From Eledone cirrhosa (taxonomy: Eukaryota): a stretch of DNA of 64,000 nt. The position numbers and the translations under genes are program-made. Location: the NCBI GenBank assembly GCA_964016885.1, contig OZ024754.1, forward strand, positions 41,974,001 to 42,038,000. The letters run 5' to 3'. Below the pieces are notes generated by a model. The model did no database searches. It was not told where the DNA came from and saw only the letters and a list, made by a program, of their open reading frames with translations. The stretch's first letter is position 1; each line of letters begins with the position of its first letter. Below are positions 18,901-39,840 of the stretch, one piece after another.

Positions 18901-21900
18901 GTATGTATGTATGTGTGTGTGTGTATGTATGTGTATGTATGTATATGTATGTCTATGTATGTATGTGTATGTATGTATATGTATGTATGTGTATGTGTAT
19001 GTATGTGTATGTATGTGTATGTATGTGTATGTATGTGTATGTATGTATATGTATGTATATGTATGTCTATGTATGTATGTGTATGTATGTGTAAGTATGT
19101 GTATGTATGTGTATGTATGTGTATGTGTATGTATGTGTGTATGTGCAGTCAGAGATACTACTCACCACACCTGTAGAAGAGAGTGTAGATCAGCAGGAGG
19201 GTTCAAATGACCAGCCAAAGTACACGAAGACCAACCACAGCCGGCTGTTGCCAGTGAATGTTTTTATCATGGTTGCCAACTCTATGCAAGACGTTTTAGA
19301 TCCTTGGCTGACTATATATATATAGTATAGTATAGTCTGGCACGGTGCCATAACTCCCGATAGAGTTGTAGGGAGATGCCATATTCATAGACAGCGCTTC
19401 TTGGACATTTTAAGCCTGGCAGAGCCCATTCCTCTCCAGGCCTGAGTACAGCAGATTTCTTCCAGAGAAGGAAAGAGATATAGAGGAAGAATCGACCCCA
19501 GTACTGGACTGGTACTTTCCTTATCAACCTCAAAAGGATGAAAGGCAAAGTTGACTTCAGCGGGATTTGAACTCAGAAAGCAGAGAGCTGGAACGAATAC
19601 CATAAAGCATCCTATCCAACGTTTTAACAACTCTGCCAATTTGCTGCATGTATATATATATCATCATCATCATCATCATCTTCGTTTAACGTCCATTTTC
19701 CACGCTAGCATGGGTTATATATATATATATTGTGAAGGTGTGTGCCTGAGTGGTTAGAGAATTGGATTCGCAATTGTGAGGTTTTGAGTTCGATTCATGA
19801 ACCGGATGATGCGTTATGTCCTTAAGCAAGACACTTTATTTCACATTGCTTCTTCTATCTGAAGTTGCGACTGATAGATAATATTAACAATTGGAAAGAC
19901 CAATGAAAACATTGTTTACATCGGTCCGATTTGACGAAAGCCAATCAACTATCGATATATATATATATTGATTATTAGTACAGATTAAAAGTTTAAGCAA
20001 TAAAATACTACTTTCATCCTCAGCAAGAACTATAATCAGCAATGTCTTTTATTAGAAATCTGGTAATGAAAGGGTTAGAGTATACGGTGAAGAAAATCAA
20101 GGATAAGTGAAAGGAAGATGAAGCAGTTTTGGTTTTGCCAAAAATTTCTTCAGAATTAAATATCCTAGTAAGAAATTGTTTGACTAAAGCGTTACAAACC
20201 TGAAGAATTCTGGAAGCCTTTTCTTTATAATCAGACAGTTCTTGTCTAGCACCTTCTAAGTTCATTTTAACTGTCTTTAATTGTTGGTTGAGCTCTGATG
20301 ACTTTCCTATAATTAAAATATATTTATGTGAATATAATAAACATAAATGTGTACCTGTGAGCATCTGTAAATGTATTTATACCTGCAACTGTAAAGTGGT
20401 AGTGCTGGTATCATGTTAAAATGCACCCAGTACACTCTGTAAAGTGGTTAGCATTAGAAAGAATAACCAACTGCAGAAACGATTCCAAAAATGGAACATA
20501 GGAGTAAGATATGGCTCTTGAACCCTTCTTGATTTGTTCAACTCATACCAGCTAGGTAATCTAGACATAAAGTGTGTATGTGTGCGTGTGTATGTGTATG
20601 TATGTGTATTCATTCATATTAAAGCTAAAACGTAAGTCTTGTTACTCTGGAGTTTCACCTGTTTACCACAGGGTCATCAGATAAGACTCACTTTTTAGCC
20701 TTAGTATAAATGAATATTAAAACTCTACTTCGGTATTGAGTACTCTTTTCTCTCAGCCATCAACCACATATGGATATATATGTATATATATGTATATATC
20801 TATAAACATGAGTCAACAGGTTATAATTCACTTCATTTATTTATAATCGCTGTTATATATATTTTGTATGCAAAAGTGTTGGTGATAAACTAACGCATAC
20901 TTTAATTAATTAAATATATATATATATATATATATATATATCATCATCATTTCATTTTACGTCTGCTTTTTCCCTGCTTTCAAGGGTGGGACGGGAACTG
21001 ATTTTGGCTTGATTTCTACAGCTGGATGCCCTTCCTAACACCAACCTCATTTACAGTGAGTGCTGGGTGCTTTTTTGCCGTGGCACCTCCACGACCACTT
21101 TGCAGTGGAATGATATGGACCCCAGCCCCTATCATCTCATTTCTACAGCTGAGTAAACTGGAGCAATGTGAAATAAAGTGTCTTGCTCAAGGAAACAACA
21201 CATCACCCGGTCTGAGAATTGAACTCACAACCTTTCGATTGCAAGGCCAATGCTCTATATATATATATATATATACGTTATTCCGGGTTGAATCGGAGGT
21301 AACCACAGTAAGTAAGGTACTCAATACATTGCAGAGTATAAAAGTTTTAATATAGATGAGATTCTACAGGACTAGAACTGTTTCATTCTTTAGAAATCAT
21401 CAGGAATCATTCCTGATGATTTCTAAAGAATGAAACAGTTCTAGTCCTGTAGAATCTCATCTATATTAAAACTATATATATATATATATATATATAGATA
21501 CATCAACAACAACAAACCTTTTAGTAACCTTGTATGACATTAAGAGATACGATGTCACTAATCTAAGCTGGATATAGACACATATACACACACATAATTT
21601 GTTAAAACATTTATCAAAATTCTTCCTTACCTTTTTCATCATTCATCTTTTTATGACTTATATTCAACTGATCCGCTAATCCTTGCTGCTCATATTCTAG
21701 TCTGCTTTGTCTTTCTGAAGATTCAAGCTAAAATATGGAATAAAAAGCAACGATAAATTATTAGGGTTTTATTTCAGCAAACTTTACACAACAAAATATT
21801 TATACTGACATTTAAATTAGGTTTTAAATTTATCTTTTTGTTACCATATGTCAATGGGTATGTGGTTAGAATGTCTCAGGGAAGAATTACCGAACAGATT

Positions 21901-24900
21901 TGTAGCTCAGAGATCAGAGTGTCACTCCAGGTAGAGCTGCTACTTCTCCAAATTGAGAGATCACAGCTCTGATACTATGACATGTCATTAGAATGTCTCA
22001 GGGAAGAATTGCCGGACAGATTTGTAGCTCAGAGATCAGAGTGTCACTCCAGGTAGAGCCATTACTTCTCCAAATTGTGAGATCACAGCTCTGATACTAT
22101 GACATGTCATTAGAATGTCTCAGGGAAGAATTGCCGGACAGATTTGTAGCTCAGAGATCAGAGTGTCACTCCAGGTAGAGCTGCTACTTCTCCAAATTGA
22201 GAGATCACAGCTCTGATACTATGACATGTCATTAGAATGTCTCAGGGAAAAATCACTGGACAGATTTTACTGGCAAAATCAACAGGAAGGAGACCCAGGG
22301 TAGACCCTAAGCAAGATGGTTGGATAATATCCATGAACTTGGTTGGCCTCACTTGGGGATCCAGCCGGATCAGTTAGGGACAGTTGTTTCTTACAGAACC
22401 CACTGGAAGGAGTGTTTGAGGACTCTGCCCCAATGACCCTCTCAGGAATAAGTGGGTGAAGAAGAAGTTACCATATTTCTAAGAAAAAACACTGCCCATG
22501 ATTTTTAAATCATTTTCAAATTAATCAAGAGTTATAAGAGATTTAGTAATATAATTAACATTTCTCATTAAGCTGGTGTTTGGAACATAACTTAACAAAG
22601 GTTCTTCCATAAAATTATAAAGGAAGGATTTTAGATGCATATATAAACACTTTAAGCCCTTGATGCCATGTTTCTAATCAAAGATGTTGACAATGATTTT
22701 TAAATAATTTTGAAAATAATCAAGAATTTTACGAGATTATTTCTTCTTATTAAGTTATTTAATAAAAGTTCTTACATAAAATTATGATGGAAGATTTTTA
22801 GATAAATATGAATACTTTAACCCTTTCATTAGAATATTTCTAATGAAAGACACAGCCAATAACTTTGAAATATGTTTGAAAACAACAAAGAACTTTACAG
22901 GATTTAATAAAATAACTAACTTCCTCATTATTAAGCTGGTGTTTTGAACATAATTTAACAAAAGTTCTTATACAAAATTCTGATGGAAGGTTTTTAGATA
23001 AACTTTAAAATAAAAAAGTTTTCTATGATAGGAAAAGGGTCAGTTTCAGGTGAGTTGATATCAAAAGGGTTAAAGACCTGCAGAAACTGCCTTTCATACC
23101 TGTACTTTTTGGTAAGCATCTCGTTCACGTCTTAATGTATCTTCCAATTCAGATAATCTGGTCTTTAATGTTTCTAATGCCTGGTTCTGAACTCCACTGG
23201 AAGCTGAGTGATCCATTAAAACTCTAGATAGAGAAAAGTTGTCTGACTTATACAGAATATACAAATTAATTCACTCTATATCAGAATATATATTTAAATG
23301 CACCCACTACACTCTGTAAAATGGCAGAATGCATCCTATACCTTCTATAAAGCAGTAGTGCTGGTGTCACAATAAAATGCACCTAGTATACTCTGTAAAA
23401 TGGTAGTGATGGTGTCACAATAAAATGCACCTAGTACACTCTGTAAAGTGGTAGTGCTGGTGTCACAATAAAATGCACCCAGTACACTCTGTAAAATGGT
23501 AGTGATGGTGTCACAATAAAATGCACCCAGTACACTCTGTATAATGGTAGTGCTGGTGTCACAATAAAATGCACCCAGTACACTCTGTATAATGGTAGTA
23601 CTGGTGTCACATTAGAATGCATCCAATACACTAGAGGGTGGTCAAAGGCATGATGGTGTGACTCAAGTGAAGGATGTAATCGAGACAATCAAGGAGGGCA
23701 AACATAGATGGGCTGGCCACATCTCTCGTCTTAGAGACAACAGGTGGACTATTAGATTGACAGAGAGGACACCTGGGCTGACCACATCTCTCACCTTAGA
23801 GACAACAGGTGAACTATTGGATTGACAGAGGGAACACCAAGGCAGAAGAGAACCAGTAGAGGGCAGCTAAAGGCCAGATGGTGCAATGATCTGACCTGAT
23901 ACCTCAGCCCTATGTGGCCTAATATGGCCAAAGATAGGTAATAGTGAAGGGGAACCAGGGAAGTGTTCCTCCTAACAGGTGGGAGAAACTCCTGGATTTT
24001 AGACAGTGTTTACTGTGGCTACTTACCGATTGTTTTCTTTCTCTAGTCTTTCCAGCATACTTTGGTTCCTCCTCAGATCAGAATCTGCTTCTTCCAGTCG
24101 AATCTTCAAAATTGCTAACTGAGAGTCCTTGCAGTTAAGTGCCTCTTGTAAGTCCATCTCACGAGATTGTACTTGTCGTACGATCTGGTCATTTTTGGCA
24201 GAAAGTATGGTGTATTCATTTATCTTCTTTAAAGCAGCTTCCAATTCTGGTAATGATCAAAATGTATATATATATATTATTATTATGTAATAAACAACAT
24301 AAGGCAATTATTCCATTTACTGGTTTGTTTATTGAATATGGATTTTAGAATCCATATTCAATAAACAAACCAGGATTTTTCATTCTGAGGATTGAAAGCA
24401 AAACCTTTTGCTTTTAAGAAACCACTGGTAAATGGAATAATTGCCTTATGTTGTTTATTACATAATAATAATAATTAAGCTCTGTTGCATACATAGAGCA
24501 CTCTTTTTTCCTGGACTTTTCCGATGGAATTACTTCACATATATATATATATATATATATATATATGTATATATATATTATTTAATAATAAGTTGACGGA
24601 ACTAGCATGGGTTTCACTGCTAGGACCGGTTGCATCTCAGCGTACTCAATAGGTAATGTTAAGTAACTCCCTGAGTATACACATAGTTATTTGCTTCAAT
24701 ACAACACACGTAAATGGGTACCTTCAATCTTTACTCGTACTTGAGTTTTGGCTTCACTTAATGCAGCAATAGAGTGCACAGCATCCACTGTCTGTATTTA
24801 TTATACAACAATGAAAAATCGAAGCATGTAGCTTCATCAGCGGGTTTCGCCTAATCAATAACCAATCGATCGACAGAATTCAATTCCAGTCCGTGTCGGC

Positions 24901-39640: not shown

Positions 39641-39840
39641 TACGTTATTCCGGGTTGAATCGGAGGTAACCACAGTAAGTAAGGTACTCAATACATTGCA
39701 GAGTATAAAAGTTTTAATATAGATGAGATTCTACAAGACTAGAACTGTTTCATTCTTTAGAAATCATCAGGAATCTCATCAGGATTCCTGATGATTTCTA
39801 AAGAATGAAACAGTTCTAGTCCTGTAGAATCTCATCTATA
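39641..39840. mobile_element. ~200-bp element in (TA)n with two back-to-back family D hammerheads
   Basis: 39722-39780 (-) has a 10-bp stem I GATGAGATTC/GAATCTCATC. 39782-39832 (+) has GGATTC/GAATCT, CTGATGA 39788-94, GAAA 39807-10, and GUA cleavage after 39826. Confidence 0.8.

Follow-up and report, generated by a model that had tools for sequence, protein, structure and literature searches.

Penelope-like elements that bear an endonuclease have been described to insert with an adjacent inverted, 5'-truncated copy and a one-sided tail at (TA)n targets (PMC8557442). The mechanism that builds these inverted ends was named as open in the same report. Head-to-head palindromic junctions have been described as well and were explained by self-priming (PMC3846280). 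Opposite-strand hammerhead pairs 100-700 bp apart, in covarying families with low in vitro cleavage, were reported in 2014 (PMC4209133). In the PAc element of Anolis carolinensis, whose open reading frame (ORF) begins at stem II, a stem-loop located 111-118 bases into that frame is the start point of copying; the template is mainly uncleaved RNA, cleavage requires the protein, and the targets are AT-rich (PMC11167929). Here, we analyzed a 64,000-nucleotide stretch of the Eledone cirrhosa genome (GCA_964016885.1, contig OZ024754.1, positions 41,974,001 to 42,038,000, forward strand; hereafter the window). It contains a hammerhead repeat, family D, including two elements of about 200 bp (A and B) in which two hammerheads lie head to head on opposite strands. 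Our data suggest that these palindromes are likely dead-end insertions of the hammerhead terminal repeat of a very abundant Penelope-like element, in which the mirror copy is probably newly made at each insertion and the resulting hairpin is predicted to mask the ribozymes.

Anatomy of family D in the window

End-to-end alignment of A (21275-21472) with B (39641-39840) showed one substitution (at 39736) and an 8-base indel at the centre; the short arms end differently. TA tracts flank both elements on both sides and would hide any target site duplication. On each strand of each element we observed a single complete type I hammerhead motif, with C3 at 21413 (plus) and 21403 (minus) in A and at 39788 (plus) and 39770 (minus) in B. 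The triplet is GUA, and cleavage is predicted after 21451 and 21365 (A) and after 39826 and 39732 (B). A first, sequence-only reading of this DNA had reported near-identical 200-bp elements in (TA)n, each with one complete hammerhead per strand, and the alignment and motif search bore this out. In both A and B, the two ribozymes form the arms of a single inverted repeat (arms of 65 bases with 100% complementarity in A and of 72 bases with 90% in B) and thus do not count as independent ribozymes. The long arm alone carries a tail of 67-77 further bases, the short arm ending earlier; the tail terminates in a stem-loop 127 bases from C3. The parts of A and B are:

21256-21275, no strand: TA tract left of A, the likely target
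21276-21343, minus strand: one-sided tail of the A long arm, with a small stem-loop at its end
21360-21408, minus strand: type I hammerhead motif of the A long arm (stem I 5, stem II 3, stem III 4 pairs)
21409-21455, plus strand: type I hammerhead motif of the A short (mirror) arm (stem I 4 pairs)
21343-21473, no strand: inverted repeat of A (65-base arms, 1 base between)
21473-21496, no strand: TA tract right of A
39584-39639, no strand: TA tract left of B
39641-39717, minus strand: one-sided tail of the B long arm
39722-39780, minus strand: type I hammerhead motif of the B long arm (stem I 10 pairs; stem III G-U at 39736)
39777-39782, no strand: spacer at the B centre, private to this element and consisting of a short repeat of reverse-complemented core sequence
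39782-39832, plus strand: type I hammerhead motif of the B short (mirror) arm (stem I 6 pairs)
39837-39866, no strand: TA tract right of B

In the A long arm, stem II is closed by U-U, the stem III loop contains CTAG and the GUA triplet lies at 21367-21365. The outer four of the 10 stem I pairs in the B long arm derive from B's private centre. The inverted repeat of A lies in an intron of the golgin A5 gene, ~150 bases from the exon ending at 21626.

A 22-base word from the ribozyme occurred 8 times at 6 loci in the window (0.01 expected). These six loci had five layouts: two full arms, an arm with a core fragment, an arm with an inverted tail, an arm alone, and an arm with a long upstream region. 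The four loci other than A and B (copies C to F) comprise:

25213-25259, minus strand: copy C, complete hammerhead motif (loop II CTTC, stem I 4 pairs)
25270-25285, plus strand: copy C, 16-base mirror fragment (core start and half of stem II)
36019-36065, minus strand: copy D, complete hammerhead motif (loop II TCAC, G-C fourth pair) without a mirror arm
36066-36296, minus strand: upstream region of copy D, non-inverted, ~230 bases up to a TA tract
44964-45040, plus strand: copy E, an inverted tail-only piece (44964-44997) joined to a hammerhead core
60235-60358, plus strand: copy F, a single arm with tail, its middle (~60250-60271) inverted in place

Copy C lies in an intron of golgin A5, sense to that gene, and its mirror fragment pairs back onto its own core in the predicted fold. 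The core of copy E is without the 3' strand of stem I. The inversion in copy F spans ~22 bases between short inverted repeats at loop II and the cleavage site, and disrupts the ribozyme; an assignment of 60250 as a decayed minus-strand core was rejected in favor of a plus-strand element with an inverted middle. Target sequences were TA tracts at A, B, D and E, and CA plus TA tracts at F; at C, a tract was present on one side only. A tail-like segment with no hammerhead core nearby lies at 52813-52860.

The core CUGANGA ... GAAA ... UH with GUA was complete in six of the eight family D arms (all except those of E and F). Stem I, of 4-10 pairs, is open; stems II (3 pairs) and III (4 pairs) are closed. 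All family D arms have U-U at the position of the G10.1-C11.1 pair typical of type I hammerheads, a mismatch described as a tolerated variant of natural hammerheads (PMC3088659). A descriptor scan returned 9 hammerhead-like motifs in the window, 6 of them family D (100 block-wise dinucleotide shuffles: mean 0.06, maximum 1 motif). The Rfam model Hammerhead_HH9 (RF02275) scored the B long arm at 15.7 bits (E = 0.099), below its gathering threshold of 52 bits, and the Rfam search of the whole window gave no hammerhead family among 150 of the 152 matches listed. Pattern scans for family D gave 0 matches in the metagenome, genome and viral contigs searched.

We also observed other hammerheads in the window. 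An unrelated second family occupies 20606-20750 in a golgin intron (core at 20680, minus strand). It has a longer stem II with C-U at the base, and is arranged head to head with a tail-bearing arm whose tail shares words with the family D tail; the turn is made by its own stem I, which places the core in the hairpin loop. Two minimal motifs of the published animal Penelope type lie on the minus strand at 49620 and 54715, with an additional base following the core, a basal G-C in stem II and almost no stem III; no ORF was found near either. Two longer inverted repeats, 24275-24473 and 25585-25868 (46- and 116-base arms), have hammerhead-like cores near their centres:

24385, plus strand: hammerhead-like core in a longer inverted repeat
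25672, minus strand: hammerhead-like core in a longer inverted repeat

Predicted folding and origin of the palindromes

The sequence-only reading had proposed that the element would cleave transcripts of either polarity. Our folding predictions point the other way, with the mirror arm predicted to pair with the whole ribozyme. The whole element was predicted to form a 63-pair hairpin (-113.5 kcal/mol, z = -21.9), and forcing the hammerhead fold in whole A and B cost 76.4, 75.2, 71.8 and 71.5 kcal/mol. The same cost was 6.5-9.6 kcal/mol in isolated arms, 28.2 in C and 8.1 in D. In growing-chain snapshots of A and B, the unpaired probability of the core was 0.0 in 20 of 20; the core of C was nearly all paired in 5 of 5, and that of D was 29-51% open. 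Since the arms lie head to head, the antisense arm is transcribed first on either strand; with the hairpin far cheaper, cutting of passing transcripts is unlikely. RNA crossing A or B is thus predicted to form a long hairpin that masks both ribozymes, with no cleavage on either strand. Copies A and C in the golgin A5 introns each have a sense-strand ribozyme motif that is predicted to be masked; these two cases are too few to claim selection.

These predictions bear on the proposal that the unit was selected to cut RNA of both polarities, acting on any transcript that crosses it. The complete core on each strand, the conserved core with its covarying stem I, and the location of A and C within golgin A5 introns would fit such a role. 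The antisense-first order on both strands and a hairpin favored by 71.5-76.4 kcal/mol argue against it, and animal Penelope hammerheads are described as weak cleavers or protein-dependent (PMC4209133, PMC11167929). Furthermore, the covariation is found between subfamilies and not between the arms of a single copy. We consider this proposal extremely improbable.

We next compared the six loci with endonuclease-bearing Penelope insertions. A head-to-head, inverted, 5'-truncated copy with a variable joint was present at A, B, C and E. Also present were a one-sided tail, an AT-rich or microsatellite target and a type I hammerhead in a terminal repeat; head-to-tail partial tandems were found in reads, with none in the window. 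The unrelated hammerhead family at 20606-20750 has a like head-to-head plan and a similar tail, which supports the Penelope assignment. We infer that the repeat is a pseudo-long terminal repeat (pLTR). In the insertion that we envisage, a reverse transcriptase (RT) with a GIY-YIG endonuclease, supplied in trans, would nick the AT-rich target. Priming would occur at the tail, ~120 bases downstream of the core, and uncleaved RNA would be copied through the ribozyme to a stop a few bases beyond it. The inverted copy would then be added by template switch or self-priming.

To assess abundance and joints, four DNA runs (X1, X21, X5 and X8) were aligned to the B long arm (39642-39783, 142 bases) at 80% likeness. 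In X1, summed contig depth was 1.79 million at the ribozyme, 1.78 million at the tail and 6.65 at the B centre (39782-39783); summed depth is not copy number, and the ratio shows only that the arms are abundant and the centre is not. The B centre was at single-copy depth, with the family about five orders of magnitude deeper. X21 contained at least 13 different opposite-strand joints in at least 146 reads (up to 5 start places each), and two whole cores were joined in 52 of those 146 reads. By contrast, 501 and 759 reads left the arm at 39773 and 39776, respectively, into other sequence; most reads continued into sequence that was not inverted. One loose-end consensus resembled the upstream region of copy D, and similar upstream sequence was present in loose ends of X21, X5 and X8. 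Ribozyme and tail were also contained in X5 and X8, which are labelled as two other organisms.

The joints speak against the fixed 200-bp two-ribozyme unit that the sequence-only reading had described: the centres of A and B differ, four loci have other layouts, and at least 13 joints occur in reads. They also bear on a single-source origin, in which one palindromic source, non-autonomous or resembling a miniature inverted-repeat transposable element (MITE), was moved or duplicated whole to give A and B, the centres changing later. Such a source is consistent with the single substitution in ~190 aligned bases, the shared long-arm end and short-arm ends within ~7 bases, as well as with the joint 39773-39773 (40 reads in X21, 6 contigs in X1). 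However, those 40 reads came from 2 start places, the B centre is at single-copy depth, and C, D, E and F differ in layout, with terminal inverted repeats not at both ends. The palindrome is also predicted to mask the ribozyme, which would leave a whole-unit transcript double-stranded. An off-centre palindrome, a one-sided tail and five layouts at six loci do not match a MITE. We consider a single palindromic source unlikely.

Head-to-tail joints, which connect 39776 to 39707 through a short linker (79 X21 reads from 17 starts) or to 39713, raise another alternative, namely spread as a non-long terminal repeat (non-LTR) retrozyme or as an RNA like a short interspersed nuclear element, via head-to-tail or circular intermediates with palindromes as side products. 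The joints to 39707, the very high abundance, the lack of an ORF found and the palindromic CTAG in loop III, which permits a dimer fold, would suit this route. Small Penelope hammerhead variants reportedly cleave as dimers, according to a 2017 paper. Against a retrozyme origin, none of the six window loci is tandem, and the short tandem unit is without the tail and the long upstream region. It would moreover be largely the same system, animal retrozymes having been traced to Penelope pLTRs (bioRxiv 10.64898/2026.07.22.740005). As a separate explanation, it is very unlikely. The head-to-tail units, of ~78 bases with the ribozyme and without the tail, may form a minimal retrozyme-like array elsewhere in the genome.

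Several points weigh against reading the palindromes as Penelope-type insertions. The assignment is structural only, as no RT or GIY-YIG ORF is tied to the repeat. A Pfam search of 15 frames near D, C, 49620 and 54715 gave no Penelope ORF remnant, and phmmer with one of three frames of the D upstream region gave no Penelope protein among 1.84 billion proteins. (The sole phmmer match, a repetitive, repeat-derived and unrelated protein, was rejected.) A and B are near-identical and their breaks nearly coincide on both sides, which also fits one palindromic source, and the tail of 67-77 bases is longer than the published 30-40 bases. X21 is a reduced-representation (restriction-site-associated DNA, RAD) library, short-read libraries and contigs may under-represent perfect palindromes, and the figures for reads cover at least 13 opposite-strand joints, beyond which lie 4 more rows of joints, 37 of variants and 228 of loose ends; the proportion of head-to-head copies is therefore approximate. 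As the reference extended no further than 39783, joints are visible near the core only. The folding energies are equilibrium nearest-neighbour values, not kinetic ones, and ignore proteins. Finally, a core change, G12A, was present in 340 of 3813 X21 reads (among 40 of the 77 variants) and at 0.2% in X1. Separately, 146 read ends piled at 39658 in X21 were set aside as a likely feature of the RAD library.

Constraint, upstream sequence and host genes

We assessed variation in X1, which had 18 variants at ≥3% in total. Within the 45-base ribozyme (39729-39773), these affected only the four bases of loop II and 39736, the latter being B's own change. The fourth stem I pair was U1.4-A2.4 in A and B, A-U in C (25213/25259) and G-C in D (36019/36065), and the G version of position 1.4 made up 6.5% of X1 depth and 688 of 2332 X21 reads. 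Compensatory differences at this pair had been claimed before; they hold at 21409, 25213 and 36019, and the A of the B plus-strand motif is 39784, not 39782. The loose-end consensus gave two 6-pair stem I types, GAAUCU/AGAUUC and GAAGCC/GGCUUC (unphased), which differ on both strands at pairs 4 and 6. The 5' strand of copy C fits the second type if one U is added, so its A-U pair may be an insertion rather than a substitution.

In an alignment of the eight arms, the covariation score was 0.170 (shuffles 0.097 ± 0.031; reached in 10 of 500). Two pairs were changed on both sides, which was not above chance (361 of 500 shuffles), and these counts are weakened by the copy F row, a rearranged arm. 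In-window covariation of stem I is only suggestive. Fold-back copying as the source of stem I complementarity would explain the outer four pairs of the B minus-strand motif, given that B's centre is private; it was rejected as a general explanation, as it does not fit the 6-pair stems of non-inverted copies.

The remaining claims of the sequence-only reading on the fold stood in part. The stem II loops are TAAA, CTTC and TCAC as it described, with TTC/GAA kept in only six of the eight arms: loci E (45002) and F (60239-60271), which it did not include, have stem II TTC/AAA with a broken outer pair. The stem III change from G-C to G-U is present, at 39736 rather than 39722. Selection on the fold agrees with the confinement of X1 ribozyme variants to loop II and 39736 and gains only suggestive backing from covariation in the window. 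Overall, these data suggest that the hammerhead fold was probably selected in source elements and not in inserted copies.

We then examined sequence upstream of the core. Five of the six loci (A, B, C, E and F) retain ~3-9 bases there, and D alone continues. Copy D contains TATAAATA; 26 bases further on is the A of CAGT, which precedes the core by 10 bases:

36097-36090, minus strand: TATA-like word of copy D
36071, minus strand: A of the initiator-like CAGT of copy D

We take these words to be TATA-like and initiator-like from general knowledge. ACAGTC recurs in the loose-end consensus of two of the four runs (X5 and X8), among the rows listed. A rotifer pLTR has a like spacing of TATA and initiator (PMC3846280), and the Drosophila Penelope promoter is TATA-less (PMC2377424). 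If RNA starts at CAGT, the arms would be run-off complementary DNAs (cDNAs), from tail to cap. Tentatively, and with less than even confidence, we suggest that the ~130-base arm is a run-off cDNA with fixed ends (the tail stem-loop and an RNA start ~10 bases before the core), that fold-back silences its ribozyme, and that sense intronic copies survive as double-stranded RNA for editing. The term 'strong-stop' occurred once in the Penelope pseudo-LTR literature among the matches listed, and that use concerns Copia elements. If the suggestion is true, an octopod genome containing of the order of 100,000 arms would be a genome-scale record of how Penelope inverted ends are built, and a set of editing substrates. 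In coleoid tissues other than the nervous system, editing targets repeats (PMC9068888), which would make family D hairpins plausible substrates.

Family D is also of value as test material, with many young copies, mappable break points and a fixed U-U variant of stem II. The folding predictions imply that isolated arms may cleave and that fold-back copies should not. Enrichment of fold-back copies among sense-strand intronic insertions would indicate that host selection shapes ribozyme exposure.

The host gene was aligned as 14 coding pieces:

9914-34935, minus strand: golgin subfamily A member 5 (golgin A5)

The first exon of golgin A5 had 79% identity with Octopus sinensis and 69% with Argonauta hians. 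The introns of this gene contain copies A and C, and copy D lies ~1.1 kb upstream of its ATG. A YIF1 exon is located near 54000 on the plus strand. Further retroelement remnants may lie in the golgin A5 introns at 31798-32793 (RVT_1 match) and 13640-14090. The RT at 31798-32790 (RVT_1), which we take by likeness to be a remnant of a long interspersed nuclear element, is not joined to any family D copy. A Pfam search gave no match for 13640-14090, which we presume from resemblance to be a retroelement remnant. Several mutually similar exon-like reading frames of 85-135 residues each occupy 900-5960. Potential long RNA hairpins abound in the window, which has many other near-perfect inverted repeats (82-143 base arms):

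396-644: long inverted repeat
1293-1541: long inverted repeat
2894-3142: long inverted repeat
6791-7306: long inverted repeat
37715-38011: long inverted repeat
46709-47009: long inverted repeat

Comparison with known systems

Family D is probably an ordinary Penelope-type repeat family in an octopod and is apparently undescribed. No paper devoted to it was found in a comparison that had subscription literature, Repbase and Dfam outside its range, and its sequence words were absent from the published supplement files searched (those of PMC4209133 in part).

Family D shares with the endonuclease-bearing Penelope insertions (PMC8557442, PMC3846280) a hammerhead terminal repeat, a head-to-head palindrome, a tail at one end, an AT-rich or (TA)n target and head-to-tail forms. 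It differs from them in its arms of ~130 bases, longer tail, lack of an ORF found and extreme read depth. Like the minimal and variant hammerheads of animal Penelope-like elements (PMC4209133), it is type I with a stem I of 4-6 pairs and a palindromic loop III, has compensatory families and opposite-strand pairs, and occurs mostly as truncated solo copies. Unlike those hammerheads, its stem II of 3 pairs is closed by U10.1-U11.1 and not by G-C, and its stem III has 4 pairs; the two motifs of a family D pair touch, whereas the published pairs lie 100-700 bp apart. Natural U10.1-U11.1 hammerheads (PMC3088659) likewise combine a weak stem II with the mismatch at its base; in family D, an animal repeat of high copy number, the mismatch is fixed throughout the family, unlike in those cases (X1 had no variant of it at ≥3%).

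Compared to non-LTR retrozymes (bioRxiv 10.64898/2026.07.22.740005), family D is similarly non-coding and Penelope-related, with a type I hammerhead and some head-to-tail reads; unlike their tandem arrays, the window loci are dispersed and either head to head or single. The PAc Poseidon element (PMC11167929) is like family D in having a stem-loop ~110-120 bases downstream of the hammerhead, AT-rich targets and copying that spans the uncut site. The family D tail stem-loop lies 121 bases from the stem II point that matches the start of the PAc ORF, and, unlike that of PAc, the family D hammerhead offers no open frame with a start codon. The family D palindrome is a real feature whose structure is of a known type, and it is unlikely to be active as a ribozyme; taken together, these comparisons suggest that it works like a Penelope-type stump and probably is one.

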